Assembly (NCBI GenBank): GCA_964370805.1
Contig: CAYJKM010000006.1
Coordinates: 1-42,250 of the forward strand
From: an uncultured Alphaproteobacteria bacterium
GTDB taxonomy: Bacteria > Electryoneota > RPQS01
Reading direction: 5' to 3'
Length of the DNA stretch: 42,250 bases
Part shown: positions 131 through 39,295 of the stretch, in pieces
How the letters are laid out: every line of letters begins with the position of its first letter
How positions within the stretch are numbered: the first letter of the stretch is position 1
Position numbers and translations under genes: made by a program
The notes under the pieces: generated by a model
The model's database searches: none
Seen by the model: the letters and a program-made list of their open reading frames with translations, nothing else
Told to the model about the DNA's origin: nothing

Positions 131-568
131 ATGGACTACGAGAACTTTACCTGTCCGAACATGGCATGCTCTGATTTCGGCAAGCGAAATCAAGGCAACA
201 TTACACTTTACACTCGCTACGGCCGCAAGCAAGTGCGTTTGCTTATTTGCACAACTTGTGGAAAGACCTTCAGCGAGTTAAAAGGAACCCCATTTTGGGA
301 CAGCCGACTCGACTGGGACACGATCGAGAAGATCTACAAAACCCTGCTCGACGGACAGGGAATTCGTGCCACCGCCCGTATTCACGGTCTTTCCAAGAAC
401 ACTGTGAAGCGCTACTTACGCTTAGCGAAGAAGGACCTCACCACGGTGGAGAAATTCCTTCAGGATCGCGGCGTCATCGGCGGGAATACCGCCGCCCTGC
501 ATGATCTCTTGGACCGTCATGTGCGGATGACGGCAAACATTGGTACTCGCCGCCCAATCCTCCAATAA
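131..568 (+). CDS. IS1-family InsA-like zinc-finger + helix-turn-helix protein, no DDE domain
   Basis: CPNxxC...CxxCGKTFSE Zn-ribbon, KGTPF, then GIRATARIHGLSKNTVKRYL HTH as in IS1/IS1595-type transposase N-termini. No room for InsB before the tRNA. Confidence 0.65.
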   Translation: MDYENFTCPNMACSDFGKRNQGNITLYTRYGRKQVRLLICTTCGKTFSELKGTPFWDSRLDWDTIEKIYKTLLDGQGIRATARIHGLSKNTVKRYLRLAKKDLTTVEKFLQDRGVIGGNTAALHDLLDRHVRMTANIGTRRPILQ

Positions 569-8383: not shown

Positions 8384-8399
8384 TGGCATTCGATTTGCA
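8384..8399 (+). promoter_or_regulatory. sigma54 (-24/-12) promoter of the pilB operon
   Basis: TGGCAT-TCGAT-TTGCA. Confidence 0.8.
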
Positions 8400-10159: not shown

Positions 10160-10171
10160 GTGGAGAGCAAT

Positions 10172-12249: not shown

Positions 12250-13455
12250 ATGCCGGTATTCGTTTATAGTGGCCGCACCGCGGGGGCGAAGACCGTCGCC
12301 GGTGAAATTGAGGCCAAAGACAAGCAGGATGCGGTCGCCAAGCTGCGTCACCGCAAGATTGTCGTCGCCGAAGTCAAGTCCAAGCCGAAGGAAATTTCCT
12401 TTGCGGCCGGGCTGATGACCAAGGTCGGCACCAAGGACTTGAAGATTTTTGCCAGGCTGTTCGGTACGATGATCAATGCAGGTTTGCCGATTGACATGTG
12501 CCTGCAGATTCTCTCCGAGCAAACCAAGAACAAGGTGTTCCGCCGCGCCATCGCCGAGGTGCACGGGTCTGTATCCGGTGGGGCGGGGCTGGCCGAGGCC
12601 ATGTCCAAGCACAAGAAAGTGTTCGACAACCTGTTTGTGCACATGGTGGCGGCGGGCGAGACAAGCGGCGCGCTCGCGAATGTGTTCAGCCGGCTGGCCC
12701 TCTACCTGGAAAAAGCGCATGCGCTCTCGCGCAAGGTAAAAGGCGCGATGATTTACCCTGCCGTCATTGCCATGGTAGCCACCGGTGCGACCATCTTCCT
12801 TTTGATCAAGGTGATTCCAGTATTCGCCAAGATGTTCGCCGACCTGGGCGCTGAATTGCCCGGACCGACGAAGTTCGTGCTGGCGCTCTCCGACGTCGTG
12901 AGACGCACGTTCCTGCCGGGCGTGGGCTTAACGATCGTGGGGATTTTCATCTTCAAGCGCTGGCACCATACAGAGCGCGGCAAGCATACGGTGGACAAGC
13001 TGCTGCTGAAGATGCCGGTAATCGGAGGAGTGATTCGCAAGACCGCCGTCGCGCGATTTACGCGCACGCTGGGGGTGTTGATCTCGTCCGGCGTGCCCAT
13101 TCTTCAGGGACTCGACATTACCGCCAAGACGTCAGGCAACATGGTAATCCAGTACGCCATTGAGAAGGTGCGCAAGTCGATTTCCGAAGGCAAGACGATT
13201 ACCACGCCGCTCATGGAATCGGGCGTCTTTCCGGCGATGGTCGTTCAATTGGTTGCCGTGGGCGAACAGACGGGGCGACTGGCGGAGATGTTAGGAAAGA
13301 TTGCCGATTTTTATGATGAGGAAGTGGACGCGGCAGTTTCAGCGATGACGTCGCTCATTGAGCCGATCGTGATTGTGCTCATGGGCGCTGTGATCGGCGG
13401 CTTGCTGGTCTCGATGTACTTGCCGATGTTCGACATGATTGGCGCGATCAAATAG
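12250..13455 (+). CDS. pilC: Inner-membrane platform protein PilC (GspF family)
   Basis: AGETSG, KVKGAMIYP, SGVPILQGL, GEQTGRL, SLIEP, MYLPMF. Confidence 0.96.
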   Translation: MPVFVYSGRTAGAKTVAGEIEAKDKQDAVAKLRHRKIVVAEVKSKPKEISFAAGLMTKVGTKDLKIFARLFGTMINAGLPIDMCLQILSEQTKNKVFRRAIAEVHGSVSGGAGLAEAMSKHKKVFDNLFVHMVAAGETSGALANVFSRLALYLEKAHALSRKVKGAMIYPAVIAMVATGATIFLLIKVIPVFAKMFADLGAELPGPTKFVLALSDVVRRTFLPGVGLTIVGIFIFKRWHHTERGKHTVDKLLLKMPVIGGVIRKTAVARFTRTLGVLISSGVPILQGLDITAKTSGNMVIQYAIEKVRKSISEGKTITTPLMESGVFPAMVVQLVAVGEQTGRLAEMLGKIADFYDEEVDAAVSAMTSLIEPIVIVLMGAVIGGLLVSMYLPMFDMIGAIK

Positions 13456-13462
13456 GCTGTCG

Positions 13463-14998
13463 ATGCGAATCAGCTTCGAAACAGGAAAGAACTTCTCGGC
13501 CTACCTGGCAGCACGGCTCATTTTCGTGACCGTGCTGTTGGGGGTGGCGGCGATCTTTCGTCCGGCCGCAGGAAACTTGCTGACTTATTTGGCGTTGTTC
13601 GCGGCAAATTCGGCGTTAAGTTTGGGCGGTTGGGAGTGGTACCGGCAATGGCCGTCGCTCAAGCTGTTGAAAGGCGTGACACTGACACTGGCCGTGGTGC
13701 TTGACACTTTGGCGCTCTATTACACCGGCGGCGGACTGAATGTGTTCATGTTTCTGTACTTTTTCTCCGTGAGCGCGGCCGGGCTGCTCACGGGCTTCGC
13801 CGGGAGCATGTGGACTGCGCTGCTGTCCGTCGGGGGTCTGATCTGGCTGGAAGTCCAGCGCGCCGGAATGCTTCAGCCCAGCGCGCGCATGGTAATTTTC
13901 ATCTATGGGCTCAACCTGGTACTGACGGCGGCATTGGCCTCCTATCTGTTTGCCTGGTTCCGGGACCGCGAAGCGAAGCATAAGGCAACGCTCGGCGAAC
14001 TGAAGCAAATCCGGCTTGACACACAGTCAATATTGGACTCGGTGAGCGCCGGAGTCTTGGTGGTGAATGCAGACCGAGGCGTGCTGTACTCTAATCCGTC
14101 ATGCCGAATGTTGCTGGGTTTGCCGGCGGACGCACACACCGCGCAAATTGAATCGTGCCTGCAACCGGGCCGGCCATTGGGCGACGTGCTGGCACGGGCC
14201 GGCGAGTACGCGAACGGAGAATTCAATCCGCGCATTAACGGCGAGCATGAGCGCGTGCTCGGATATACGTTGTCTCCTCTGCCCGATGTACAAGGGAATG
14301 TCCGAGGTCACGTCCTGCTGCTGGCCGACTTGACTCCGATGAAAGCGGCGGAGCGAGCGGATCGTGAACGGGAGCGGTTGGCTGCCGTCGGCATGTTATC
14401 CCGCGATCTCGCGCATGAGATTCGGAATCCCCTGGCCACTGTCCGAGGCTGCGTGGAGATGATGAGGTCAGTCGGCAATGACGCCCAGGAGCGAAATCGC
14501 TTTCTCGATTTGGCATTGAAAGAGTCCGATCGATTGAACAACTTGCTTCGCGATTTCCTGACTTTTGCCAAGCTGGAGCCGGTGCGAAAGGAGCATCTGG
14601 ACTTGGCGGAGTTCGTCCGGCGTCGCCTGCCGGGCAAAGCGTCGTCATTAAAGCTGATTGATCATCTGCCCCCGTCGCTGACGGCCGAATATGACCCGGA
14701 GCAACTCGGCCTAATTATCGACGCGGTGCTGTTGTCCCTCGTGGAGTGGGCGGAAGGAGACGGAGAGGTTCAACTTGAGTCCGGCCGCAACGGCCACCAG
14801 GCGATTCGATTCCTATTGAAAGGGAAGACGATTCCGGAAGAAACCAGGAGCGCTGTTTTTCAGCCGTTTTCCGGCGTGAATCGTGCATCATTCGGTCTGG
14901 CGCTGCCGACCGCGCTGCGCGCCGTTCACGCACACGGAGGCAGTTTGACTCTGAACAGTGAGCCCGGTATTGGCACTTGGTTCGAACTAAAACTCTGA
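13463..14998 (+). CDS. pilS: PilS-like membrane sensor; H-box intact, ATP-binding domain degenerate
   Basis: About 6 TM segments, PAS-like region, LAHEIRNPL; position between pilC and pilR; N, G1 and G2 boxes altered. Confidence 0.8.
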   Translation: MRISFETGKNFSAYLAARLIFVTVLLGVAAIFRPAAGNLLTYLALFAANSALSLGGWEWYRQWPSLKLLKGVTLTLAVVLDTLALYYTGGGLNVFMFLYFFSVSAAGLLTGFAGSMWTALLSVGGLIWLEVQRAGMLQPSARMVIFIYGLNLVLTAALASYLFAWFRDREAKHKATLGELKQIRLDTQSILDSVSAGVLVVNADRGVLYSNPSCRMLLGLPADAHTAQIESCLQPGRPLGDVLARAGEYANGEFNPRINGEHERVLGYTLSPLPDVQGNVRGHVLLLADLTPMKAAERADRERERLAAVGMLSRDLAHEIRNPLATVRGCVEMMRSVGNDAQERNRFLDLALKESDRLNNLLRDFLTFAKLEPVRKEHLDLAEFVRRRLPGKASSLKLIDHLPPSLTAEYDPEQLGLIIDAVLLSLVEWAEGDGEVQLESGRNGHQAIRFLLKGKTIPEETRSAVFQPFSGVNRASFGLALPTALRAVHAHGGSLTLNSEPGIGTWFELKL

Positions 14999-16521: not shown

Positions 16522-16537
16522 TGGCATGACGCTTGCC
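16522..16537 (+). promoter_or_regulatory. sigma54 promoter of the pilin gene
   Basis: TGGCAT-GACGC-TTGCC. Confidence 0.75.
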
Positions 16538-17239: not shown

Positions 17240-17255
17240 TGGCATATCCCTTGCA
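17240..17255 (+). promoter_or_regulatory. sigma54 promoter of the downstream operon
   Basis: TGGCAT-ATCCC-TTGCA. Confidence 0.8.
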
Positions 17256-26744: not shown

Positions 26745-28400
26745 ATGAGATTCCGAAATCCCGGGCAAGAAGGGCAACGCAACGGGCATAAAACTCGACA
26801 GGATCGGGGCCTGATCCTGATGTCAACCGTGGTGATGGTGAGCGGGCTGCTCTTCCTGGCCGCCACGGCGGCCATTCGAGCCAATCACGAGACTCAGCTT
26901 ACTTCGGTCGAATTGGACAACTCGCGCGCATTCTATGCGGCCGAGGCAGCGATTGAATGGGGTTCGGCCGAATTGTCCACGCTGCTCGCTAACAACGTGG
27001 ACCCGACGCAGGCTCAACTGGATGCCTTGACAAAACCCTCGCTAAGCGGATTCACGTTCGAGGACTATCGTATTCTGAAGGTGGGAGCGATGACTGAGGA
27101 GCAGATTTCGCAGGGCGATTACGCCGGCCTCCGCGGGTACGTGCAGCGATACAGCGTCGAGGCTCAGGCAAACAGCAATCGTCGCAACGCGGTTGTGTCG
27201 CGCGAGATTCAGCACCAGTTCATCCCGCTGTTTCAGTTCGGCGTCTTTTACGAAGGTGATCTGGAGATATTCCCCGGTCCCCTGATGACGTTTGCCGGAC
27301 CGATTCATACGAACTCCAATCTGTACATGGGGGCCGAGTCTGAGATTCGGTGCGAATCGTCCGTGACGGCGGTGGGAAAATACTGGCATTACCGGAAGGA
27401 CAACGCGCATCCCGATCCGCCGGGGGCTGTGAAGATCATGGATCAGTTCAATGTCTGGCAAAACGTCTGGCGCGGCAGCTACTGGCTGGATAACCGCCGG
27501 GCGACGTGGGCGTCGGAGGCCACAGCAGTGTGGGGCGGCAATTTCCGCGACGAATCGCATGGATTGTCAACGCTGCGCTTGCCCATCCCGCCGGCGGCGG
27601 ACCAGCATATTACGATTGAACGGGGACTTGTCTCCGATGGCGAATCGGAACGAGCGGCCAAGTACTGGTACAAAGCGACGGTACGTTACATCAATGGCGT
27701 GCTGACGGACAGCATGGGCACGCCGTTGAATCAGCCCGGCGTTTACACGTACACGGCGAACAAGTTTTGGGACGACCGGGAAGACAAGTACGTTGACTGT
27801 GTCGATATCAACATCCAGACGATGGTGAACAACAATTACCGGCCGCCCAACGGCATTCTTTACATCAGCGAGTCGCGGGGCGATTTCGGAGCCGTGCGCG
27901 TCATCAACGGCAGCACGCTGCCGGTCGGCGGATTGACGATTGTTACGGATCGCCCGATGTATGTCAAGGGGCACTACAACACCGTCGCCAAAAAGGGTGC
28001 GGCGCTGTACAGCGATGCCTTAACGCTGCTGTCGCCCTCTTGGAATGACGCGAATTCAGCCCAGCCGTTGAGCAATCGCGTGCCCTCCAGCCAGACCGTG
28101 AATGCCTGCATCCTGACGGGACATGTGGCGACGATTAACGGCGGCACGTACAGCGGCGGATTGGAGAACAATTTCCGGTTTCTCGAACGGTGGTCCACCC
28201 AGACCGTCACCTATCGCGGCAGCATTATCGATTTATGGTTTAGCGTGTACGCGACGCGGCCGTGGATCTACGGAGTCTACTACACGGCTCCGCAGCGGAA
28301 CTGGGCCTACGACACGGACTTGTTGAACCCGGCCAACTGGCCGCCGGGAACTCCGCGCGTACAGACCGTGCAGCGCGGTTCATGGCGGCAGATCAGCTAA
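26745..28400 (+). CDS. pilX: Large PilX-like minor pilin
   Basis: RG|LILMS (no Glu5), AFYAAEAAIE, GPIHTNSNL, long C-terminal domain ending SWRQIS. Confidence 0.72.
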   Translation: MRFRNPGQEGQRNGHKTRQDRGLILMSTVVMVSGLLFLAATAAIRANHETQLTSVELDNSRAFYAAEAAIEWGSAELSTLLANNVDPTQAQLDALTKPSLSGFTFEDYRILKVGAMTEEQISQGDYAGLRGYVQRYSVEAQANSNRRNAVVSREIQHQFIPLFQFGVFYEGDLEIFPGPLMTFAGPIHTNSNLYMGAESEIRCESSVTAVGKYWHYRKDNAHPDPPGAVKIMDQFNVWQNVWRGSYWLDNRRATWASEATAVWGGNFRDESHGLSTLRLPIPPAADQHITIERGLVSDGESERAAKYWYKATVRYINGVLTDSMGTPLNQPGVYTYTANKFWDDREDKYVDCVDINIQTMVNNNYRPPNGILYISESRGDFGAVRVINGSTLPVGGLTIVTDRPMYVKGHYNTVAKKGAALYSDALTLLSPSWNDANSAQPLSNRVPSSQTVNACILTGHVATINGGTYSGGLENNFRFLERWSTQTVTYRGSIIDLWFSVYATRPWIYGVYYTAPQRNWAYDTDLLNPANWPPGTPRVQTVQRGSWRQIS

Positions 28401-28411
28401 AGGACACGCAT

Positions 28412-29593
28412 ATGCTCAAATTGTTCGGCGAGAAGAAAGTAAGCGAGATTGACGCCCGCGCGGCGATTCAGCAAAGAAAGTGGTCGCGAGCCATCGCCTT
28501 CTATGAGAAGAAGCTGAATGGCGAACGCGACTATCCGCTGTGGAATCTGCTGGGCGATTTGCACATGAACAATAACTCCCGGCAGAATGCGGTGGAGGCC
28601 TGGCGGCGCGCCCTGGAGGGGTACGCCGCCGAGGGTCTGCACGAAAACGTGCTGGGCATTGCGCGGAAGATCCTGCGTCGCGCACCCGAAGAGGAAGACG
28701 TCCATCTACTGCTTTCGGAATCGTACCTCGAATTAGAATACCACGCGGACTGCCTGGCGACACTGCGCAATTACGTACGCATCGCCCGCCGTCCGTCCGA
28801 GCCGGCGATGAAAGCGTTGGTCAAGAAGGTGCTCGATTCACGATTGCGTCACCCGCATCTGCTGGAAGAGTTTCGCGCTTGCTATCAGGAATCCGGCATT
28901 GAGGACGTGGAACTGGCGAAGCTGGTTGAGCGTTTCGTGACGTTTCGAATGGAGAGCGCCGCTGCCGAACCCGAACCTGCGGTGGAGCCGGCCGCGGAAG
29001 AAATCGGCGAATCGACGCTGGAACGGGAGCCAATGGTACCGCAGAAAACCGATGACGGATTGCTGCTGCTGGACGTAAACCCCGGCGACATGGACACGGC
29101 GACGCATCACGCTCCGGTGGTTTCGTCCCCGGACCCGTCGACGGAATTCAATTCAGACTACATGACGGACTATGATCCCGTGATTGGGGAGGATGGTCAG
29201 TCGTCCGCTTCAGCGGATGGCAAGGATCACTATGACTTGGGAAACGTCTATCGAGAGATGAAGCTCTGGGATGCGGCCGCCGCGGAGTTTGAGCAGGCGC
29301 GCCGCGATCCGGCTCTGCGTCTTCGCGCCTCGTTGGCCCTGGCCGAGTGCTTGCAGGAAATGAGCAATCTGCAGGGCGCGCTGGACCTGCTCGAGGCGGA
29401 AAGCCAGGCCCAAGCGGCCTCGCCGCAGGAGCGTTTGAGTTTGCGCTTCCAACTTGGCGTTGTCCACGAACTGCTGGGAAACCTGAACGATGCGCTCGAA
29501 TGCTTCCAGACGGTTTATCAGCAGAATAATCAGCATGCGGAAGCTGAAGAACGCATTCAGGCCTTGCGCCGCCGGTTGGGAACGGCGGCATGA
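28412..29593 (+). CDS. Cytoplasmic TPR protein (N-terminal TPRs, acidic linker, C-terminal TPRs)
   Basis: WNLLGDL, HYDLGNVYREMKLWDAAAAEF, FQLGVVHELLGNLNDALECF; AAGGA RBS. Confidence 0.8.
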   Translation: MLKLFGEKKVSEIDARAAIQQRKWSRAIAFYEKKLNGERDYPLWNLLGDLHMNNNSRQNAVEAWRRALEGYAAEGLHENVLGIARKILRRAPEEEDVHLLLSESYLELEYHADCLATLRNYVRIARRPSEPAMKALVKKVLDSRLRHPHLLEEFRACYQESGIEDVELAKLVERFVTFRMESAAAEPEPAVEPAAEEIGESTLEREPMVPQKTDDGLLLLDVNPGDMDTATHHAPVVSSPDPSTEFNSDYMTDYDPVIGEDGQSSASADGKDHYDLGNVYREMKLWDAAAAEFEQARRDPALRLRASLALAECLQEMSNLQGALDLLEAESQAQAASPQERLSLRFQLGVVHELLGNLNDALECFQTVYQQNNQHAEAEERIQALRRRLGTAA

Positions 29594-29661
29594 CGGGATC
29601 CAAGACGAAAACAAGTGAAGCTAAGCACTAATTTGTAAATTCAGTTATTGCGGGAGAAGCG

Positions 29662-30777
29662 ATGGAACTTCGTGGACTGCTCGACCTATTGTTTATCAAG
29701 AAAGCGTCAGATCTGCATTTGCGCACAGGCGCGTTGCCGGTACTGCGAATCAACGGCGAATTATTCGCCACGCGTCCGGAGAAAATTTCTACCGAGGAAA
29801 TGGATGCGTTCTTGAAAGAGATTCTGACGCCTGCCCAGCGGGATACGCTGGTGCGCGACAAAGAGCTTGATTTGGCGATCACCGTGCCGGGTTACGGGCG
29901 CACGCGCGTCAATGCATTTTACCAGCGCGGTACGGCCGCATTGGCCGTGCGCGCCATCAAGACGCAGATTCCCACGTTCGCCGAGCTCATGCTGCCGCCC
30001 GTCATGGAGCAGTTTTCGAACATGCGGCGCGGTCTGATCCTGTTCACGGGAGCGACCGGATCGGGGAAATCCACGACGATGGCGTCGCTGATCGAACATA
30101 TCAATAATCGCCGAAGCTGCAACATCTTGACCATTGAAGACCCGATTGAGTACATTTTTTCGAATAAGAAATCATTGATTGCGCAGCGCGAGGTGATGAT
30201 TGACACTCACACCTACTACGCCGCGTTGATTCACGCCTTGCGCGAGGATCCGGACATCATCATGGTCGGCGAGATCCGCGACGCGGACTCCATGATGATG
30301 GCGCTGCATGCGGCGGAAACCGGGCACCTCGTATTGACGTCGCTGCACACGTTGAACGCCGTCGAAGCGATCAACCGCATTATTTCGTTCTTCGCGCTCA
30401 ACGAGCAGGGACAGATCCGCTCGATCCTGGCGGGAACGGTACAGGCGATCGTATCACAGCGACTGGTCTCCCGCTCGGATAAGCCGGGGCGCGTGCCGCT
30501 CGTGGAATGTCTGGTCAACACGGCGGCCGTGCGCGAGTGTTTGTCGGATCCGGACAAGATGTACCTGTTGCAGAGCCTGATCGAGGACGGCAGCGCTCAC
30601 GGCATGCAGTCATTCGATCAATCGATTCTCACTCTTTACCGCAGCAATACGATCTCGTACGAAACGGCGATTGAGAGCGCGACGAATCCGAATGACCTCG
30701 AGATGGCAATTCGCGGGATCAGTTCGTCCGCCTCGAAACTAAACGCCTCGGCGGAGGCCGTGGGGCTTAGGGCATAG
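29662..30777 (+). CDS. pilU: Second retraction ATPase (PilT/PilU family)
   Basis: ASDLHL, GATGSGKST, EDPIE, REDPDIIMVGEIRD, ETGHL, GMQSFDQS; AIRNLIRE replaced by AVRECLSD. Confidence 0.8.
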   Translation: MELRGLLDLLFIKKASDLHLRTGALPVLRINGELFATRPEKISTEEMDAFLKEILTPAQRDTLVRDKELDLAITVPGYGRTRVNAFYQRGTAALAVRAIKTQIPTFAELMLPPVMEQFSNMRRGLILFTGATGSGKSTTMASLIEHINNRRSCNILTIEDPIEYIFSNKKSLIAQREVMIDTHTYYAALIHALREDPDIIMVGEIRDADSMMMALHAAETGHLVLTSLHTLNAVEAINRIISFFALNEQGQIRSILAGTVQAIVSQRLVSRSDKPGRVPLVECLVNTAAVRECLSDPDKMYLLQSLIEDGSAHGMQSFDQSILTLYRSNTISYETAIESATNPNDLEMAIRGISSSASKLNASAEAVGLRA

Positions 30778-30826
30778 TCACAGCAGCGCAACTGGATAAT
30801 GGGATTTCAGGATTGGGGAGGAGGGT

Positions 30827-31540
30827 ATGGGCGAAAACCGGACGATTGTTGGCAAATTAGATGATCGCGGCATGCTTCCATTGCTGGACATGGCCTTGGC
30901 CGAAGAGTGGGGCGGCAGCATGCAGGTCAAACGCGGTCTGTTGACGGGCACGATTTGGACCGTCAGCGGACAAGTCGTGCATGCCGAATTGAAGGGCGTC
31001 GGCACGCTGGACGAGCTGGAAGCGTTCGAGGCGGTCTCGAGCTGGCGAGACGGCGAATACATTCTCGAATCCGGCGCATTGCCACCGGCCCGCAGCATCC
31101 GCATCGCCACAGAAAGATTGCTGGCAACCCTGCGCGACTCGCTCGCCAGCCAGCAGGTACAGTTCGGCGAGGGGCAGCGGTCCGCGGTCGTGGGGCGCAC
31201 GCTGCTGCAGGTCTTCGACGGGCTGCGCGAGCGCGTTCCCGGACTGGAATCCCTGAGTCTGGTGCGTGGGACGATTTGTGAAGCGACCACCTCACAGGAC
31301 ACGGACGAAATGGATTGGATGGATCGACAGTTGAAGTCCTTTTTTGCCAAGGATCATGAAGAACCGGACACGTTGTTTGTACAGGAAGGCGCGCACACGT
31401 TGCTGATTTTGAAACAAGGGAGTCTGGCCACTGTGCTTTCCGCGCGGACCGGGACGTCGCCGGAGGCGTTGTTCTGGGCCGGATCGGAGGCCCAGCGCCG
31501 CGTACTTGAATCCGCACAAGCGATACTGTCACCGAGGTAA
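30827..31540 (+). CDS. DUF4388-domain protein with possible degenerate roadblock/LC7-like C-terminus
   Basis: GKLDD...LL...G...V...G.I...GQVVHAE...EAFEAVSSWRDGEY pattern; GGAGG RBS. Confidence 0.65.
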   Translation: MGENRTIVGKLDDRGMLPLLDMALAEEWGGSMQVKRGLLTGTIWTVSGQVVHAELKGVGTLDELEAFEAVSSWRDGEYILESGALPPARSIRIATERLLATLRDSLASQQVQFGEGQRSAVVGRTLLQVFDGLRERVPGLESLSLVRGTICEATTSQDTDEMDWMDRQLKSFFAKDHEEPDTLFVQEGAHTLLILKQGSLATVLSARTGTSPEALFWAGSEAQRRVLESAQAILSPR

Positions 31541-31543
31541 TGC

Positions 31544-32959
31544 ATGGCAGCTAACGCAAGATCACAAACGCTTTTGGACAGCTTGCTCGAGAAGCAGGTC
31601 ATTTCGCAGGAGCAGCACCAAACGGTGCAGAGTCTTCAGGCGGAGACCGGGCATTCAGCCGAACAAATTCTGATTGAATCCGGCACGCTGACCGAAGAAG
31701 ACTTGGCTGCGTTCATCAGCGACGCACTGCAGGTTCGCAGCCTGAAGTTGGAAGACATCGAAATTGATCGCGAGGCCGTTAAGCATGTCCCCGCAGCCGT
31801 GGCGCATCGTTTCCAACTCATACCCGTGCGGCGCAGCGGCAACGCGCTCGCCGTGGTATTTGCGAATCCGACCGATCCGGAAGCTATGCGGGCCCTGCAA
31901 GCGGTAACCGACTTCGAGATCATTCCATTTGTCGGACGGGCCGACGCGATCGAACACGCTGTGTTTCTGCATTACGGGGAAGCGCCGGCCGAAGTTGCGG
32001 CTCCGGACTCAGCAGTCTCGGCGTCGCGGGCTCAGCCGTTGATCGAGGATGATCGCATCAGCCATATGGGCAAAAGTATTCAGGTCAACCGGCAATGGTC
32101 GTTTGAGCAGATGGTATCGGATGCCGCCAACCAGTTCCCCGTCAGCGTAGCAAAGGCTGTGGCTGAACTGCTGCCGGAGACGGAATACAATCCGTTTCTG
32201 TGCTGGGGACAGGCGGGGTGCGGCAAGTCCCACTTGCTCCACGCCATCGCCAATCATTTGATCGCCCATGCGCCCCTGAAGCGCTTCATATTGACCAGCG
32301 GCCAGAAGTTCTGCGACAATCTGTTTGAAGCCATCCGCGACAAGAAGCTGAACCTGTTCCGCTATCTTTATCGCGAACTCGACGTGCTGATGATCGATGA
32401 CGCCGACGCGCTGTTGAGCAGGGATTGGGCGCAACAAGAATTAGTTGAGACCTTTCAATCGCTGCGCAAGCATGGCAAGCAATTCGTATTAGCGAGTCGC
32501 CAGAATCTGGCCGTTAACCCGCGCACGGTCGCTAAGCTCCGGGACGTGCTGGAGACGGGCGTGATCGCCGGCTTCGGCGAGTATTCGGTGGAAGCGAAAC
32601 TGGCAATGATCAGCCGCCAGAAGGGCGGGATCGAGCTGCCCTCGGAAATGCTCATTTACCTGGTGCGCCGCTGCGGCGACAGCGTGACCGATTTGCTGGG
32701 CGTGCTGCAGCAAGTCACGATGCTCGCCTTGCACGGCGAGCGCATCATCACGCAGGAAGCCGTGGATGACTTGATCCGGCTGTGTGGACACGATTTGGAA
32801 GGCGCCAGCCAGGATTTTCAGGCGGCCCTGACTGAAGCTCAGGTTGAAATGCCGGCTGATTCGCGACCGCCCGAGTCGGCCGAGACGACTGAAGACAAAC
32901 CATCTCAAAAGAGCAGGAACAGACAGCATGGTGAACAAGCCGCAAATCCTCATCGTTGA
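31544..32959 (+). CDS. PilB/GspE N-terminal (MshEN-like) domain fused to a DnaA-like AAA+ domain
   Basis: N-half parallels the PilB N-terminus (ISQEQ...VPAAVAHRFQLIPV...ANP). C-half: SFEQMV...NQF...AVAE...YNPF..WGQAGCGKSHLLHAIAN...YRELDVLMIDD...QQEL. Confidence 0.85.
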   Translation: MAANARSQTLLDSLLEKQVISQEQHQTVQSLQAETGHSAEQILIESGTLTEEDLAAFISDALQVRSLKLEDIEIDREAVKHVPAAVAHRFQLIPVRRSGNALAVVFANPTDPEAMRALQAVTDFEIIPFVGRADAIEHAVFLHYGEAPAEVAAPDSAVSASRAQPLIEDDRISHMGKSIQVNRQWSFEQMVSDAANQFPVSVAKAVAELLPETEYNPFLCWGQAGCGKSHLLHAIANHLIAHAPLKRFILTSGQKFCDNLFEAIRDKKLNLFRYLYRELDVLMIDDADALLSRDWAQQELVETFQSLRKHGKQFVLASRQNLAVNPRTVAKLRDVLETGVIAGFGEYSVEAKLAMISRQKGGIELPSEMLIYLVRRCGDSVTDLLGVLQQVTMLALHGERIITQEAVDDLIRLCGHDLEGASQDFQAALTEAQVEMPADSRPPESAETTEDKPSQKSRNRQHGEQAANPHR

Positions 32960-33308
32960 TGACGATCCGCGATATCTTGAATTGCTGCAATTCGCGTTAG
33001 AGAGCGAAGGGTTTCGCGTGCTGGCCGCCCGCAATCCGCGTCAAGTGCAGGCCCTGGCGGTCTCGTACCGTCCGGACATGATCATCTCGGACGTGGTGAT
33101 GCCGGAAATGGACGGCTTTGACGTTGCTGCCAACTTGCGCGCGGATGCGCGAACAGCGGATATCCCCGTGATCTTTCTAACCGCCCGCAGCCAGGAGAGC
33201 GACCGACTGGAGGGGCTGCGAGCGGGTGCGGTTCAATATATGACCAAGCCATTTTCGCCGGCCGCATTGGTTGACGCCGTGCGTTCGGTCATGAAGGAGG
33301 CATCGTGA
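32928..33308 (+). CDS. Single-domain response regulator (CheY/PilH-like)
   Basis: ILIVDDD, ISDVVMPEMDG, IPVIFLTA, YMTKPF. Confidence 0.9.
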   Translation: MVNKPQILIVDDDPRYLELLQFALESEGFRVLAARNPRQVQALAVSYRPDMIISDVVMPEMDGFDVAANLRADARTADIPVIFLTARSQESDRLEGLRAGAVQYMTKPFSPAALVDAVRSVMKEAS

Positions 33309-34480
33309 CCGTTTCGACAGCACCTGCGGCTGCCGCCGACCGTACGACTCGATCCGGTGATGGTTGGGGCGAGCTCGTTCACTCGTCGCGCGATATCATC
33401 TATCTCTTGCGGCCGGACGGCACCTACTTGGACGTCAACCAGCAGCTGACTCGAGTATTGCGGCGTCCCCGGGAGCATATCGTTGGCGCGCACTTTACGA
33501 CTCACCTGGAAAAGGAGCATGCGGCCGTCGCCGAGCGCGTACTGAAAGACCTCGTGCAGCGGCGCGCTCCGGAACGAACCACTCGGATGTTTCACCTTCC
33601 GGGCAATGAGCCGCAGCTTTTCGAGATCATCGAGACCCCGTTGATCCGGAACGGCGAAGTCTGGGCCATCGCCGGAGTCGGACGCGATATTTCGCAGGAA
33701 GCGGAATTGGAGCGCAAGCTCTGGGACACGGTGGAGACTCAGCGTTACTCACTGGACTTTGCCCTGCGCACGTCGCTGGGGCTGATCAAGGGCTACATTT
33801 ACACGCTCGGACAGAGTGAGACCCTGTCGGACGATCGGCGCATCCGCTACACGCGAATTATCGAGGACGAAATCGATCATCTGGCGAAGATTGTTGAGGA
33901 CATTCTGGATTTTCGCCGCATGGAAGTCGGGAATTACGAGTTCAACGAAGAGGTCGTACAGCTCTCCGATTGCGTGAACATGGTCATGCGGCAATTTGAA
34001 GACGAGGCTCATCGCCGCGAGATTGAAATCAGCGCGCAAATGCCGCAGAAGATGGACCCGCTGTACTTGTTTCCGGAAGCGGTCACGCGCGTGCTGGTGA
34101 ATCTCGTTCAGAATGCCATCCAACACACCCTGCACAGCGGGCGGATCGAACTGATCGTGGAAGACAACGACCTCTACGTCGATGTGATTGTCCGTGACAA
34201 CGGGATTGGCATCGCTGAGGACGAGCTGCCGTATATTTTCGAGAAATTCTACAAAGGCAAGAGCTCGGAAAGCGAAGCGGGTCAGGGAATTGGAATGGGA
34301 CTTGCTATTACGAAGACGCTGGTGGCGGCAATGGGGGGGAAGATCTGGGCGCAGAGCAAACCCGGCAAGGGGAGCGAATTTCGCGTGATGCTGCCGCGCC
34401 GCCTCTACCACAGTGATGCTACGCACGACGAAGGCTCTGATCTCGCCGCACTGTCGGCGGTCGGCGCAGAGACTTATTGA
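33305..34480 (+). CDS. Cytoplasmic PAS histidine-kinase-like protein lacking the phospho-His
   Basis: PAS (DGTYLDVN...GRDIS); DHp reads DFALRTSLGLIKGY; intact NLVQNA, DNGIG, IFEKF, GIGMGL. Confidence 0.85.
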   Translation: MTVSTAPAAAADRTTRSGDGWGELVHSSRDIIYLLRPDGTYLDVNQQLTRVLRRPREHIVGAHFTTHLEKEHAAVAERVLKDLVQRRAPERTTRMFHLPGNEPQLFEIIETPLIRNGEVWAIAGVGRDISQEAELERKLWDTVETQRYSLDFALRTSLGLIKGYIYTLGQSETLSDDRRIRYTRIIEDEIDHLAKIVEDILDFRRMEVGNYEFNEEVVQLSDCVNMVMRQFEDEAHRREIEISAQMPQKMDPLYLFPEAVTRVLVNLVQNAIQHTLHSGRIELIVEDNDLYVDVIVRDNGIGIAEDELPYIFEKFYKGKSSESEAGQGIGMGLAITKTLVAAMGGKIWAQSKPGKGSEFRVMLPRRLYHSDATHDEGSDLAALSAVGAETY

Positions 34481-34490
34481 GGGCACAGGC

Positions 34491-36212
34491 ATGATGAAGC
34501 GTCACAAGTTGGGAATTGGTTTGGACATCGGGAGCCGCTCGATTCAGCTCTCGGTCCTGCGTTCGGCCAAAAACGGTACGGTGCTGGAGCGGTTAGCCTC
34601 CAAGGAGCTGCCGCATGATACGATCGTGGAAGGCGCCGTGATGGATTCACAGGTCCTCTCGGAGGCAATCTCCTCGCTGCTGAAAGAGCACAAGCTGCAG
34701 GGCAAGGAGGCGGCGCTCTCGATCAGCGGCCGTCAGGTCATGATTAAGCGGATCGACACGGATGAGATGACGGATGACGAACTGGACTCCGCCATCATGT
34801 ACGAGGCGAAGAGCAATCTGCCCTTCGACATCAGCGAAGTGTCCTTGGATTACGCTCGCCTGCCGCAGGAGCTGGATTCCGGTCGCATGGAGGTCTTGCT
34901 GGTGGCGGCGAAGAACGAGATCATCCTGGATGCGACGGAACCCGTGCGTTGGGCCGGCGGCCGTCCCGGGCTGTTGGAAGCCGAGCCGTTTGCCCTGCAA
35001 GCGGCGCTGCATGAAGCCGGTTATCTCGACAGTGACATGCCCGTTGCCGCTCTGCAAATCGGTTTTCAATCGACAGATGTTACGCTCTTTCAGAATGGAC
35101 AGTTTGAGACGAACCGCAACCTGCACATCGGCGGGAAGACATATATTGAAGAGTTGATCCGGGATTTGGGCATCACCTTCGAGCGGGCCGCCGGCATTCT
35201 GGCTCGCCCGCACCGGACGGAAGAAGAGCAGCATGCGTTAGATCGGATTGCTCAGCGGGTCGCCGACAAGCTGTCGGACTTGATTGAGCGTGCCATGCCG
35301 GAGTATTTCGGCGACACGGCTGACCGTCACGTGGGTACGGTCGCGCTGTGCGGCGGGGGCGCACACTTGCCGATGCTCGAAATTGCGCTGCGCCAAAAGC
35401 TCGGCGTCCAGGTGGAGATCGTCAATCCGTTTCGCCATCTGGAGATCAACAGCCACAATGTGAATCCGGCGCACACCGAGTGCGGACCGGAATTCACAAC
35501 CTCGGTCGGGCTGGCGTTGCGCGCGCTCGGTGATATCCATACCGGCTTCGATCTACTGTCGCCGTCGCACAAGAAGACGGCAGGCGGCGTCAACAATCCC
35601 GGTTCCGGCGCGGTCGCGGCGATTCTGACGTTCTCGGCGATGCTGCTGGGAATGGTCATGCTGCATATCACACAGGAGAACAAGCTTGCCGCATTGCAGG
35701 GTCGGCTCGACAATCTGAAAAAGGAAACCGACCTCTATCGCGACAAGATCGCGTTAGTCGAAGACCTGACGCAGAAACGCGCGGACATCGCCGCCCGCAT
35801 TGACGTCATCGCAAGTCTGGACAAGAATCGCTTCGCGCGCGTGAAGATGGCGCAGCTGCTGAATCGAACGCTGCCGGAATTGACCTGGCTGTCGAGCGTG
35901 TCCGAAGTGAGCACGAGTCGCGGGCCCGGATTCAACGTCTCAGGGGTGACCAGCTCCAATCTCAAGGTCAGCCAGTTCATGACCAATTTACTGCGGGATC
36001 AGGAGGTGCGCGGAGTTGATCTGTTGGTTTCGGAACAGGGCGAGATGGCCGAGGTGGACATCACGCAGTTCACGCTCCAAGTCGCCTATCCGGTCCTGGG
36101 GATCGTGGCTCCGCCGCCGCTGCGGCCGGCCAACGAACTTGCGCAGGGGGCGAAAGCCATTCGCGAGAAGCGCAGAGCGCAGTCTCAAATGATGAAAGAA
36201 TCCTCAAAATAG
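34491..36212 (+). CDS. pilM: PilM-PilN fusion protein
   Basis: GLDIGS...LCGGGA...VGLALR (PilM) continues in frame into FDLLSP, a TM helix, coiled coil and LPELTWL...FMTNL (PilN). Confidence 0.88.
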   Translation: MMKRHKLGIGLDIGSRSIQLSVLRSAKNGTVLERLASKELPHDTIVEGAVMDSQVLSEAISSLLKEHKLQGKEAALSISGRQVMIKRIDTDEMTDDELDSAIMYEAKSNLPFDISEVSLDYARLPQELDSGRMEVLLVAAKNEIILDATEPVRWAGGRPGLLEAEPFALQAALHEAGYLDSDMPVAALQIGFQSTDVTLFQNGQFETNRNLHIGGKTYIEELIRDLGITFERAAGILARPHRTEEEQHALDRIAQRVADKLSDLIERAMPEYFGDTADRHVGTVALCGGGAHLPMLEIALRQKLGVQVEIVNPFRHLEINSHNVNPAHTECGPEFTTSVGLALRALGDIHTGFDLLSPSHKKTAGGVNNPGSGAVAAILTFSAMLLGMVMLHITQENKLAALQGRLDNLKKETDLYRDKIALVEDLTQKRADIAARIDVIASLDKNRFARVKMAQLLNRTLPELTWLSSVSEVSTSRGPGFNVSGVTSSNLKVSQFMTNLLRDQEVRGVDLLVSEQGEMAEVDITQFTLQVAYPVLGIVAPPPLRPANELAQGAKAIREKRRAQSQMMKESSK

Positions 36213-36239
36213 ATCTCCGGAAGATCGGTGGAGACACAA

Positions 36240-36668
36240 ATGAAAGCGCATTCAATTTACTTCTTGTTGGCCGGCTTCGTTTTGCTGACAACGGCCGGCT
36301 GTGATGAAGGGATCGATGATTGGAACAGTTCAGCGACCATCTCGGGCTACGTTTACACCGATCCTTCGCACACGCAGGGAATCCCCGGTGTGCAGGTGAT
36401 TCTCGAATCGGATCCCAGCGCCGACAATCCGTATGAAGGGCCCGATCGCTGGACGTCCACGAATGGCCAGGGCTATTTCCAAGGCTCCGTCTTTCTGGGA
36501 CGCAATGCGGAGACCGGCAGCTATCACTATGTCGCGGACATGAGCGTCGCCTACTTCTACGAGAACAAGACGTTTCGCTGGAGCGGCGGAATCACGGTCG
36601 GTCCCGGTTCCGACTTCACTCTGCCGCCGGTGGATACGACCATGTTCATATCCATGGGCGGGCAATAG
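36240..36668 (+). CDS. Small beta-rich lipoprotein of unknown function
   Basis: TTAG|C lipobox-like site; ATISGYVY...GIPGVQV...TSTNGQGYF (prealbumin/Cna-like pattern); GGAG RBS. Confidence 0.7.
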   Translation: MKAHSIYFLLAGFVLLTTAGCDEGIDDWNSSATISGYVYTDPSHTQGIPGVQVILESDPSADNPYEGPDRWTSTNGQGYFQGSVFLGRNAETGSYHYVADMSVAYFYENKTFRWSGGITVGPGSDFTLPPVDTTMFISMGGQ

Positions 36669-36676
36669 GAGCACTT

Positions 36677-37348
36677 ATGCGCCTGAATCTTCGAAAACCC
36701 TCCACGCAAAAGTGGATTCTCAGTGTCGGCTTGGCGTTTACAATGCTCTATGGCTATGTCCAGTTCGTTTACGTTCCGCGCCAGGAACACGCGCAGAAAC
36801 TGACGGACGACATCAAGACGGAAATGGAGATGCTGGCCAAAGGGAAGCGGATTGCGGCCAATTTCCAGACCGTGCAGGATGACTATGGCCGGCTGCTGCA
36901 CAGCTGGGATATCGCACACGAACTGCTGCCGACGTCGCGCGAAATGGAAGATCTGTTGCGCAACGTCGCCATGAAGGGCCAGCAGCACTCGGTGGACTTC
37001 CTCCTGTTCAAGCCGATGGAGCCGGTCGAGCAGCCGTATTATTGGGAGAATCCGATCCAGATCAAGACGCTTTCGAACTATCACAATCTGGGGCGGTTCA
37101 TGTCCGACGTGGCGTCACTGGATCGCATCGTGAACATCAACAACGTGAAGCTCTCGGCCTTTCGGCCGAATCGGGGCCGCAGCCCCAATACGGTCGAGGC
37201 GGACTTTGTAGCCACGATCTATATCTTCAAAGAACTCGGTTCGCCGGCGGAAATCGAAACACCGCCGGAAGACAATTCCAAGAAGCCGCACGGTAAAGCC
37301 GGAGGCAACAGAGCCGCGCGCGGCAAGTCGGGAAAGGGTGAAACATGA
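36677..37348 (+). CDS. pilO: Type IVa pilus alignment protein PilO
   Basis: N-terminal TM and coiled coil, LLPTSREMEDLL, YHNLGRFMSDVASLDRIVNI. Confidence 0.9.
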   Translation: MRLNLRKPSTQKWILSVGLAFTMLYGYVQFVYVPRQEHAQKLTDDIKTEMEMLAKGKRIAANFQTVQDDYGRLLHSWDIAHELLPTSREMEDLLRNVAMKGQQHSVDFLLFKPMEPVEQPYYWENPIQIKTLSNYHNLGRFMSDVASLDRIVNINNVKLSAFRPNRGRSPNTVEADFVATIYIFKELGSPAEIETPPEDNSKKPHGKAGGNRAARGKSGKGET

Positions 37349-37917
37349 TGTTTCAAGTGATTGCAATCATACTCATGTTGCTCGTGGCGAGTCCGGCCAT
37401 GTCTGATGAGGAGTCCAACGGCGCCAACGCGACCGCGGAATCGAATCCGGTGACGGAGCCGTCGGGGGCGCGCGATGAGCAGGACAATGAAACGCTTTCG
37501 ACGGAACTGCGCGGCATCGATTCACTCGGAGTCATGCCCAAGGTCGTCGCTACACCCTATCAAGGCGGGACGCGGCGCGTGGAACTGGAAAGCACGGTGT
37601 TCCGTCGCGAGCAGCCGTTTGTTTACAATTCCGCCGCTCAGCGCGATCCATTTCGAGCGTTGATTGCCGATGAAAAGAAGGAAGGCGAAATTCAAACCGA
37701 CCTCTTGATCGTCGAGGGCGCGGTCTTGACCGGAATCGTGTGGGCGGAAGGCCACTATCTGGCAATGATCCGCGACAAGGACAGCCGCACGTTTTTCCTG
37801 CGCGAGGGCGATCCCGTCTACTCGGGGAGCGTCACCTCAGTCACGGAATCCCACGTCATGTTTGAGATCTCCACGTTCGGAGATTATCAACGCGTAACCC
37901 TGAAAGTAAACGGCTGA
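37345..37917 (+). CDS. pilP: PilP-like protein
   Basis: YNSxxxRDPF, LTGIVW...AMI, position between pilO and pilQ. Confidence 0.75.
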   Translation: MMFQVIAIILMLLVASPAMSDEESNGANATAESNPVTEPSGARDEQDNETLSTELRGIDSLGVMPKVVATPYQGGTRRVELESTVFRREQPFVYNSAAQRDPFRALIADEKKEGEIQTDLLIVEGAVLTGIVWAEGHYLAMIRDKDSRTFFLREGDPVYSGSVTSVTESHVMFEISTFGDYQRVTLKVNG

Positions 37918-37970
37918 TGCTTAACCATAAGATACACGAACCATTCCCGAACCGGGGAAAGGTGCTGATC

Positions 37971-39203
37971 ATGAAAACGTTGCTTGCCGGCCTCATACTG
38001 ATCTTGGTGGGGCTGAACACCGTGCCCGCGGCCGCACAGGTGGCACCCTATCGCGGATCCTCCGGCCACATCTCGATGAATGTGGAGGAGGCCGATATTC
38101 GCGCCGTATTGCGCAGCATTTCCGAATTCTCGGGGATGAATATCGTCGCCGGTTCTGAAGTGAAGGGACCCGTAACGGTGCTGCTCCATGACGTACCATG
38201 GCGGGAAGCGCTGGAGAGTATTCTGCGCATGAACGACTTCGTCTCCATTGAGGAGCACGGAGTCATCCGCGTCGCCACTCACAAGGACTATGAGCAGGCT
38301 GCAAAACTGCAAGCGCTTGTGACGGCGATCTATGAAGTCAAATACGCGCGGGCTGAGAAACTTCAGGCCGTGGTGAGCAAACTCCTGAGCGAGCGCGGCA
38401 AAGCACAGGCGGACATTCGGGCGAATGCCCTGATCATCACCGACATTCCACGCGTGGTGACGATGATGGACTCGGTGGTGGCGCGTCTGGACAGGCCGAC
38501 GGCGCAGGTTTTGATCGAGTCCAAGATCGTCGAGGTGGATGCAAGCTCAAGTCGCGAATTGGGTGTGGACTGGAGTCTTGGAAATCTTGCCAATCCGCTC
38601 ACCAATACTCGGGCGGGCGCCAATGTCGATCTCGGAGTGCGTGATCCGGCCGGAAGCTTCAGCTTCGGGCGCCTGCAAAACGGCGTCGCCATCGAAGCTC
38701 AACTGAGCGCGCTGGAAGAGAACAACAAAGCCAATATCCTGTCACAACCCTCCGTGCTCATCAACGACAATGAAGAGGCGATTGTGATGTCGGGGAAGCG
38801 GATTCCGATCAACGTGCTCGATCAGGCCGGCAATCTGATCACGGAATTCTATGATGTTGCCGTCAAGCTCACCGTTACGCCGCACATCAATCCCAAAAAC
38901 GAGGTCCTGATGTCGCTGAAGCCGGAAGTGTCGGAACTGTCCGGTGAAGCGACGGTGTCTGGCGGCGTGATTATCCTCACATCCGAAGTTTCGACGACGC
39001 TGCTGGTCAAAGACGGCGAGACGGTGGTCATTGGCGGCGTCATTCGTTCGAAGGACGGACTCCTCGAGCGTCGTGTGCCGCTGTTGCACGCCATACCGCT
39101 CTTTGGACGCTTATTCTCCTACTCTGCCAAGACGTTTGACAAGACGGAAATCCTGGTCTTTGTCACGCCACACGTGATACCGATCAGCATGGCCTCGAAG
39201 TAG
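37971..39203 (+). CDS. pilQ: Secretin PilQ (compact)
   Basis: ISMNVEEADIRAVL, DVPWREAL, QVLIESKIVE, LTVTPHI, DGETVVIGG, PLLHAIPLFGRLF, VFVTPHVI. Confidence 0.93.
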   Translation: MKTLLAGLILILVGLNTVPAAAQVAPYRGSSGHISMNVEEADIRAVLRSISEFSGMNIVAGSEVKGPVTVLLHDVPWREALESILRMNDFVSIEEHGVIRVATHKDYEQAAKLQALVTAIYEVKYARAEKLQAVVSKLLSERGKAQADIRANALIITDIPRVVTMMDSVVARLDRPTAQVLIESKIVEVDASSSRELGVDWSLGNLANPLTNTRAGANVDLGVRDPAGSFSFGRLQNGVAIEAQLSALEENNKANILSQPSVLINDNEEAIVMSGKRIPINVLDQAGNLITEFYDVAVKLTVTPHINPKNEVLMSLKPEVSELSGEATVSGGVIILTSEVSTTLLVKDGETVVIGGVIRSKDGLLERRVPLLHAIPLFGRLFSYSAKTFDKTEILVFVTPHVIPISMASK

Positions 39204-39270: not shown

Positions 39271-39295
39271 AGAAAGCCTCCGTTGGAGGCTTTCT
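39271..39295. terminator. Terminator closing the pilus operon
   Basis: AGAAAGCCTCC-GTT-GGAGGCTTTCT. Confidence 0.7.

Follow-up and report, generated by a model that had tools for sequence, protein, structure and literature searches.

A layered set of cytoplasmic genes with an MshEN-AAA+ fusion is conserved within the probable type IVa pilus operon of one order of candidate division KSB1 bacteria

The stretch of DNA analyzed here, referred to throughout as the window, is a contig of 42,250 nucleotides (C6) from a 1.56-Mb metagenome-assembled genome that is 65.6% complete (G000) and whose relatives are named 'candidate division KSB1 bacterium' in their source records. Open reading frame (ORF) calls combined with Pfam and NCBIfam scans show that positions 8465-39203 of the plus strand are nearly all occupied by one type IVa pilus supercluster, within which a block of six co-oriented plus-strand genes (28412-34480) is bounded upstream by the last minor-pilin-like gene and downstream by a fused pilM-pilN. 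The block encodes, in order, a TPR protein, a second PilT/PilU-family hexameric ATPase (PilT2), a protein joining a PATAN (DUF4388) domain to a Roadblock/LC7 fold, a fusion of an MshEN domain with a DnaA-type AAA+ module, a single-domain receiver and a soluble PAS-DHp-CA pseudo-histidine kinase (pHK) (Table 1). An earlier note on this DNA had described six co-oriented genes with overlaps or gaps of less than 70 nt between the minor pilins and pilM to pilQ, and our coordinates agree: the block starts 11 nt after the preceding gene (end 28400), continues with gaps of 68, 49 and 3 nt and overlaps of 32 and 4 nt, and stops about 10 nt before the first pilMN ATG (34491). Because no gap exceeds 68 nt and the best terminator-like hairpin follows pilQ, the block is probably part of one long operon with the minor pilins and pilMN-orf146-pilOPQ. 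Within 28412-34480 there is no plus-strand terminator-like site comparable to the hairpin after pilQ; overall, the region has no more terminator-like sites than its shuffles do. Sequencing runs listed as containing this DNA are four DNA runs of one study, with no RNA run among them.

Table 1. Positions of the six block genes, their flanks and further features of the window.
Feature	Position	Strand	Evidence or remark
TPR protein, 393 aa	28412..29593	+	TPR_2 45.3 bits, several TPR families
PilT2, 371 aa	29662..30777	+	TIGR01420 430.1 bits (cut-off 319.1)
PATAN-Roadblock protein, 237 aa	30827..31540	+	PF14332 32.5 bits (cut-off 25)
MshEN-AAA+ fusion	31544..32959	+	PF05157 53.1 bits (cut-off 23.1), PF00308 117.6 bits
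Single-domain receiver, 126 aa	32928..33308	+	PF00072 103.1 bits
pHK	33305..34480	+	PAS_4, HisKA, HATPase_c 99.2 bits
Last minor-pilin-like gene, 551 aa (upstream flank)	26745..28400	+	no Pfam match
Fused PilM-PilN, GspL-like arrangement (downstream flank)	34491..36212	+	PilM_2 176.8 bits and PilN 39.5 bits in one ORF
orf146, 146 aa, lipoprotein-like N-terminus	36228..36668	+	no family match; between pilMN and pilO
orf146, pilO, pilP and pilQ (rest of operon)	36228..39203	+	order conserved
Strongest terminator-like hairpin of the region	39271..39295	+	11-bp stem and T-rich tail, just 3' of pilQ
PilS-like membrane kinase	13439..14998	+	HisKA 55.3 bits, HATPase_c only 37.1 bits
Sigma-54-type -24/-12-like sites	8384-8398, 16522-16536, 17240-17254	+	one mismatch
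307-aa gene	10160-11083	+	no Pfam or NCBIfam match
2013-aa Big_1/invasin-repeat protein	18693-24734	+	16 Big_1 and 13 invasin-D3 repeats
S8 subtilase	39471-42224	+	type IX secretion system (T9SS) C-terminal sorting domain
145-aa ORF	131-568	+	weak TnsD-like match, 29.4 bits, below cut-off

Comparison with relatives supports the view of the block as a conserved, syntenic set of genes for cytoplasmic proteins that forms part of this lineage's pilus operon. We fetched 20 neighborhoods centered on the fusion gene from related genomes of one KSB1 order, representing about 11 genera, and the same order is kept in all 20: a Big_1 gene, four minor-pilin-like genes, TPR, PilT2, PATAN-Roadblock where it occurs, fusion, receiver where it occurs, pHK, pilMN, orf146 and pilOPQ. 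The synteny among relatives on which the earlier note had staked its proposal is thus found. TPR, PilT2 and pHK genes are present in 20/20 of these loci, the receiver gene in 19/20 and the PATAN-Roadblock gene in 18/20, with pilMN directly downstream of the block in 19 and the contig of the twentieth ending at that point. This arrangement is far beyond chance, counted as it is over loci chosen by their fusion gene in genomes that are kin and not independent. A chance gathering of unrelated neighbors inside the pilus cluster, in favor of which only the variable gene content described below can be cited, is scarcely credible against a gene order held across about 11 genera and a fusion-pilMN adjacency that recurs in distant lineages. 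In a survey of 79 KSB1-phylum genomes including G000, the full-length fusion was found in G000, in 22 of the 23 other genomes of family f1 and in three of the six genomes of its sister family f2; it was found in none of the 49 genomes of the phylum outside the order, where three matches comprise the AAA+ part only. Contig searches returned no relative when the single fusion protein was the query and 12 loci, all of the same lineage, when an alignment of fusions (A1) was used.

The same comparison shows that the block is layered and not one unit, and here the earlier note, which had taken the six genes for a single module, must be revised. The PATAN-Roadblock gene, located by profile hidden Markov model, is present in 18/18 loci of family f1 and in 0/3 loci of family f2, in two of which PilT2 and the fusion gene are separated by 37 and 3 nt. 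The receiver gene is missing in genome G010 (locus L035, 10518-10665), where 146 nt with stop codons lie between fusion and pHK. Four of the six genes are missing in G024 (genus g12, 96% complete), in which TPR and PilT2 genes are followed directly by pilMN, and loci of the WOR-3/Hydrothermota type described below have the TPR and fusion genes only. In four genomes from other families of the phylum the cluster is of another kind: pilM and pilN are separate there, and all six genes are absent. Several changes coincide in genus g10 and in genome G008, where the AAA+ lid is lost, the pHK ATP-binding boxes are degenerate and the PATAN-Roadblock protein is 19-25% identical to that of the window, with PilT2 remaining about 70% identical; resting on few evolutionary events in related genomes, these joint changes are suggestive only.

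Fusions of this kind also occur well beyond the KSB1 order. A profile search of 1.84 billion representatives recovered further full-length MshEN and Bac_DnaA proteins that are 21-30% identical to that of the window, and the N-termini of four such distant fusions (26-30% identical to the window protein) served as seeds for a metagenome scan that yielded 59 loci. The fusion is lacking in 44 of these, the 37 with a callable ORF encoding PilB or PilB-type N-domain ORFs, and is encoded in the other 15, which fall into about four sequence groups. Fused pilMN lies directly downstream of the fusion gene in 14 of the 15, followed by orf146, pilO, pilP and pilQ, the fifteenth contig ending 0.9 kb on, and a TPR gene lies directly upstream in 13. 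Pfam checks confirmed TPR in 4/4 loci tested and PilM_2 with PilN in the one tested. None of the 15 loci has a match to PilT2, PATAN, receiver or kinase in its fetched flanks; the genes farther upstream have housekeeping functions or, once, encode a prepilin peptidase. Source names in this distant group are 'candidate division WOR-3' and 'Candidatus Hydrothermota/Hydrothermae/Hydrothermia', and the product names given to the proteins are 'AAA family ATPase', 'DnaA/Hda family protein' and 'Chromosomal replication initiator protein DnaA'. Judged from these sequences, the adjacency of the fusion gene to pilMN is a linkage independent of the KSB1 loci. The PilM-PilN fusion and orf146 themselves recur in the WOR-3/Hydrothermota-type loci L059-L073.

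The predicted structure of the fusion (predicted local distance difference test score, pLDDT, 76.4) comprises the MshEN domain (residues 10-144), a disordered linker (151-173), an AAA+ core (about 180-345), a lid (349-413) and a disordered tail. The N-terminal domain is of the PilB type, as residues 10-148 match the PilB entry 5tsg of the PDB (E 5.6e-15) and the domain matches positions 2-139 of the PilB model TIGR02538. Residues 181-393 match Bacillus subtilis DnaA (8bv3, E 1.1e-34) and the lid matches Hda_lid (19.5 bits). This homology to domain III and the lid of DnaA, together with the RLxSRF and N(I/V)RELEG boxes of DnaA type kept by some of the more distant fusions, could favor a DNA-related role in which the AAA+ module couples piliation to replication or the cell cycle, in the manner of Hda, or handles incoming single-stranded DNA in pilus-dependent transformation. 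Such a role appears highly unlikely on the remaining evidence. Neither DnaA domain I (PF11638) nor the DNA-binding domain IV (PF08299) was found in the fusion, both of which are carried by the true DnaA hits of the same searches, and the protein scores below the cut-offs of the DnaA model TIGR00362 (150.5 against 343.9 bits) and the Hda model TIGR03420 (70.7 against 194.8 bits). In the alignment of 'drlrsrfewgl' of B. subtilis with 'aklrdvletgv' of the fusion, the position of the second arginine of the DnaA 'RLRSRF' box, which we take to be the Box VII arginine finger, is Arg in 0/21 fusion orthologs; the arginine position aligned to what is presumably sensor II is variable among the 21, with Arg mostly gone in the KSB1 proteins. 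The lid, moreover, is lost in g10, and both KSB1 and WOR-3/Hydrothermota-type contigs have the gene in the pilM operon.

Because domains I and IV are absent and no Arg occupies the arginine-finger position, the AAA+ module is, as far as its sequence tells, not a replication initiator, and with the DnaA score also below cut-off the 'DnaA' label lends no support to the cell-cycle role offered as one option in the earlier note. Annotations as 'chromosomal replication initiation ATPase DnaA', under which fusion-type proteins appear in source records, are therefore misleading for such fusions in these genomes. The Walker A Lys is kept in 20/21 orthologs and the two acidic Walker B residues in 18/21. 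With the P-loop kept, the DnaA arginine finger gone and the sensor-II arginine mostly gone in the KSB1 proteins, the module is therefore expected to be an ATP-binding switch and not a DnaA-like hydrolyzing oligomer. As a candidate input, cyclic di-GMP (c-di-GMP) is not predicted for the KSB1 fusions: the c-di-GMP motif model NF053729 (cut-off 38) scores 29.8 on the window protein and is below cut-off in four of five KSB1 fusions (29.8, 30.6, 25.7 and no match), the fifth being marginally above it (38.4), and a relaxed form of the published 24-residue motif, the hydrophobic set of which we partly completed ourselves, matches 0/21 KSB1 orthologs. For fusions of the WOR-3/Hydrothermota type the two tests disagree, with NF053729 above cut-off (51.5 and 40.7) and the relaxed pattern without a match. 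Separately, three giant proteins of 1248-1990 aa (P0107, P0110 and P0115) start with MshEN and Bac_DnaA and each contain a second Bac_DnaA domain; the c-di-GMP motif model scores P0115 above its cut-off, and the relaxed published motif occurs twice in P0107.

The two genes at the start of the block differ in how closely they can be placed. The TPR protein has TPR blocks at its N- and C-terminus, an acidic linker between them and no signal peptide visible in its sequence; it scores 29.9 bits against the SgmX model NF052243 (cut-off 1800), a resemblance at the TPR level only. Protein-cluster comparison returned generic TPR clusters only. This is also the one gene besides PilT2 that persists in G024. 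PilT2 retains its Walker A, Asp box, Walker B and His box in 21/21 orthologs, to which it is 66-90% identical. Of the earlier designation as a PilU-like ATPase, membership of the PilT/PilU family stands, well above the family cut-off, and the scores do not separate PilU from PilT: the best solved relatives are PilT proteins (5fl3, 325.9 bits), with PilU 9n32 at 266 bits and Pseudomonas aeruginosa PilT 3jvu at 254 bits. The AIRALVRE of the PilT encoded near pilB in the window (PilT1) corresponds to AVRECLSD in PilT2, a stretch that we take to be the AIRNLIRE-type motif. PilT2 is accordingly placed in the PilT/PilU family at large, an assignment to one or the other not being possible from the sequence comparisons.

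The third gene encodes a PATAN domain at about residues 1-100 and a Roadblock/LC7 fold at residues 113-237, and its PF14332 match is the only one in each of the genomes G000, G001 and G011. In an AlphaFold model (pLDDT 88.1), the C-terminal half is predicted to adopt the alpha-beta-beta-alpha-beta-beta-beta-alpha fold and superimposes on Thermus thermophilus MglB (3t1r/1j3w) with VIA Z 13.2 and a root-mean-square deviation of 2.7 A over 117 residues; Foldseek gives E 9.4e-6 to the Roadblock entry 3kye and 1.3e-5 to MglB 6hjm. These fold searches are dominated by the Roadblock half and their results cover residues 113-237. No sequence match to Robl_LC7 (PF03259) was found in the protein, so the roadblock-like half recognized in the earlier note is borne out by fold and not by that family. 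The 237-aa protein contains no receiver domain and hence does not have the architecture of a PatA-type response regulator. Prediction of a complex between the whole protein and MshEN (residues 1-160 of the fusion), run with alignments, scored 0.00, which is evidence neither way.

The MglB-like fold and the cytoplasmic TPR protein beside it invite the reading favored in the earlier note, namely a polarity module in which the TPR protein is a polar hub like SgmX or Bd2492 and the Roadblock protein acts like MglB, together choosing the pole of pilus assembly; homologues of MglA and MglB are reported to be regularly encoded near PATAN proteins (bioRxiv 10.1101/2021.06.11.447907). We nevertheless regard this as unlikely, and searches of five genomes lent it no support. 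Robl_LC7 matches are found in 0/5, one of which belongs to the same genus and is 100% complete, and matches to the Ras family PF00071, a broad model that also matches all 14 control genomes and was used with no MglA-specific model beside it, fall only in ORFs of 413-1048 aa, with no MglA-like gene of about 200 aa seen. The search for mglA and mglB that the earlier note had called for thus returned neither a Robl_LC7 match nor a small Ras-family ORF. The SgmX score of the TPR protein is far below cut-off, and the Roadblock-bearing gene is missing in family f2 and in WOR-3/Hydrothermota-type loci. No small GTPase or Che gene is present among the window ORFs scanned, in keeping with the absence of an MglA GTPase and Chp genes from the window reported earlier; CheW genes occur elsewhere in four of the five genomes, none being found in the incomplete G000.

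At the 3' end of the block, the receiver keeps its phosphorylation site (acidic pair DD, phospho-Asp, Thr/Ser and Lys) in 20/20 sequences. The pHK matches the HisKA profile only from position 13, and BLASTP against the PilS-like kinase of the window aligns its 'SLDFALRTSL' with 'DLAHEIRNPL', placing Phe at the acceptor His and Ala at the following Glu. As the earlier description of a His-less kinase implied, the acceptor position is never His: of the 21 orthologs, 13 have Phe there and 8 have Tyr. The window protein and the 13 sequences of Phe type have intact N, G1, F and G2 boxes, which are degenerate in the 8 of Tyr type. The PilS-like membrane kinase appears from its sequence to be the mirror image of pHK: 17/17 sequences keep the His, and the 16 order-level ones have lost the N, G1 and G2 boxes. 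Its gene is absent from the cluster in 3/3 g10 genomes, in which the pHK ATP-binding boxes are degenerate, and is present in genus g12 where pHK is not. The two proteins might conceivably form a split or heterodimeric kinase.

This complementarity (an acceptor His without ATP-binding boxes in one protein, no His and boxes kept in 13/21 sequences in the other) could also be read as transcriptional control, in which receiver and pHK would target the PilS-like kinase together with the sigma-54 PilR-like activator, either by forming a DHp heterodimer like those of RetS-GacS or DivL-CckA or as a split kinase, with pilin expression as the output. The absence of the PilS-like gene from the cluster together with the decay of the pHK boxes in g10 would fit, as would three sigma-54-like sites with one mismatch that sit between genes, a short way ahead of pilB, the pilin gene and the second sigma-54 activator. 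Against it, genus g12 retains the PilS-like kinase without pHK, the pattern rests on two or three evolutionary events only, and the total of sigma-54-like sites, 49 against a chance mean of 48.6, is not above chance, with no one-mismatch site at the six-gene block. The proposal also accounts for only two of the six genes, and we consider it improbable as an explanation of the block.

The surroundings of the block complete the pilus supercluster. Its 5' part consists, in order, of pilB, a 307-aa gene, pilT, pilC, the PilS-like kinase and the sigma-54 PilR-like activator; its middle of a pilin gene, the second sigma-54 activator, a 2013-aa Big_1/invasin-repeat protein and four minor-pilin-like genes; and its 3' part of the six-gene block, fused pilM-pilN, the 146-aa lipoprotein-like gene, pilO, pilP and pilQ. 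PilO (100.4 bits) and Secretin (151.3 bits) identify pilO and pilQ, and the PilP match of pilP (18.2 bits) is below cut-off. The 551-aa gene flanking the block upstream is kept in its position in 20/20 relatives; the C-terminus of its product scores 76.2 bits with the model of HpsA, a hormogonium polysaccharide protein (NF038301), short of the cut-off of 400. The 307-aa gene between pilB and pilT lies at the same position in genus g10, at 41-43% identity. The 2013-aa protein, between the second sigma-54 activator and the minor pilins, keeps its position in relatives and may be a pilus-linked adhesin. Beyond the supercluster, the subtilase gene that follows pilQ is found at this position in several relatives, and the 145-aa ORF at the start of the contig may be what is left of a Tn7-like element.

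We hold with moderate confidence that the six genes encode accessory regulators of the type IVa pilus, of the adaptor or switch kind, that act at the PilM/PilC/PilB interface, receive phosphorelay input and were built up in layers. The gene content, motifs, folds, synteny and distribution given above are established, and from them we infer each physical contact and direction of control that follows. The core layer, common to the WOR-3/Hydrothermota-type loci, would be the TPR protein and the MshEN-AAA+ fusion. Its MshEN domain would bind the targets of the PilB N1 domain, that is, the socket of PilM (here in a GspL-like PilM-PilN fusion serving as docking platform), PilC or a PATAN partner, and would thereby bring a switch or scaffold with bound nucleotide to the machine's base, gating or organizing the access of extension and retraction ATPases, with the TPR protein as its presumed scaffold partner. 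According to PMC11656802, PilB docks in the PilM socket, with the contacts between N1 domain and PilM inferred from type II secretion system (T2SS) homologues, and extension and retraction ATPases compete for the stator; T2SS ATPases bind GspL, a natural PilM-PilN fusion, via N-termini containing GSPII/MshEN domains (PMC6325625). The second layer, belonging to the KSB1 order, would add a retraction-type motor in the form of the second, catalytically intact PilT/PilU-family ATPase. In the third, receiver and His-less PAS kinase would work in a DivK-DivL-like manner, the kinase-like protein reading the phosphorylated receiver and relaying its state, much as a His-less kinase is reported to read a phosphorylated single-domain regulator (PMC4211667). 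The fourth, confined to one family, would be the PATAN-Roadblock adaptor; PATAN is reported to bind the N-terminal domains of PilB1 and PilC, and DUF4388 co-occurs with GspE_N domains (bioRxiv 10.1101/2021.06.11.447907).

Several points weigh against this interpretation. Docking of MshEN to PilM is not a safe assumption, because in Thermus PilF no single GSPII domain is essential for PilMN binding (PMC6325625). Parts of the block must be dispensable or drifting, because G024 lacks four genes, G010 lacks the receiver, and g10 has lost the lid and shows decay of the pHK boxes. The synteny counts, finally, derive from related genomes selected by their fusion gene, and the metagenome loci stem from one seed subgroup of four sequences.

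A more specific version of this proposal joins the observations into one picture and is offered tentatively, as a possibility of lower probability. MshEN combined with a DnaA-clade AAA+ module would constitute an unrecognized class of type IV pilus regulator, one that no fewer than three candidate phyla of the FCB group (KSB1, WOR-3 and Hydrothermota) retain beside pilM. The fusion would occupy or organize the PilM socket contested by the motors and, in the KSB1 order, would be wired to a phosphorelay. That relay may use a split kinase, consisting of the His-only PilS-like membrane sensor and a CA-only soluble partner, with the PATAN-Roadblock protein as the link.

Pilus accessory regulators as such are a known kind, and what appears to be undescribed is the MshEN-DnaA domain architecture. 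We found no published description of it in the open-access main texts searched, where the single paper containing both 'MshEN' and 'DnaA' is unrelated; 'DnaA' is absent from the main text of the MshEN paper PMC5013675, and PATAN, TPR and AAA+ are absent from the text of the 2024 review of PilB cofactors PMC11656802. Open-access searches likewise gave nothing relevant on KSB1 pili or on PATAN with Roadblock, and no description of the block, which agrees with the earlier view of it as undescribed. Research on type IV pili has yet to explain how the extension and retraction motors gain access to the pilus base, and the known cofactors (PilZ/FimX, MglA/SgmX, PilG/PilH and PATAN regulators) come from few model phyla only. 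A protein that retains the PilB docking domain but has a nucleotide switch of DnaA type instead of the motor would be a natural probe of the docking site; several uncultured phyla encode it immediately ahead of pilM. As the block proteins are small and soluble, assays of binding, nucleotide and phosphotransfer could be carried out with no need to culture the organisms.

The block shares features with several characterized systems and departs from each. It resembles TPR hubs of the SgmX/FimV type and the PilZ-FimX-PilB cofactors (PMC11656802) in consisting of cytoplasmic accessories of the kind that control when and where PilB works, but its proteins have no specific sequence relationship to them. 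Like PilU, PilT2 is the second ATPase of the PilT family, its catalytic boxes are intact and its AIRNLIRE-type stretch has diverged, yet it scores higher to solved PilT entries than to solved PilU. With MglB, the Roadblock/LC7 GTPase-activating protein of MglA, the PATAN-Roadblock protein shares the fold and a pilus-regulation setting; it differs in having no Robl_LC7 match at the sequence level, in being fused to PATAN and in the lack of any MglA-like GTPase found. The PatA-type PATAN regulators PixG, PixE and PilG are likewise encoded with type IV pilus genes and have receiver-based input nearby, which here is a separate gene, and their PATAN domain is reported to bind the N-terminal domain of PilB, an MshEN/GspE_N domain being encoded 3 nt downstream here; in contrast to them, the PATAN domain of the block is fused to a Roadblock fold and not to a receiver, and the window contains no chemotaxis-like kinase. 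Like DivL and DivK of Caulobacter (PMC4211667), the block pairs a kinase-like protein lacking the acceptor His with a single-domain receiver, but pHK has Phe or Tyr at that site, a single PAS domain and a soluble form, and the likeness is one of architecture. The fusion has the AAA+ domain III of DnaA and Hda, with Walker A and B motifs and lid, and is set apart from both by the absence of domains I and IV and of an arginine finger, by scores below the NCBIfam cut-offs and by its place in a pilus operon. Its other half is the same PF05157 domain, corresponding to PilB positions 2-139, that serves as a c-di-GMP receptor in PilB/MshE (PMC5013675), here joined to an AAA+ module of the DnaA clade instead of a PilB-type ATPase.

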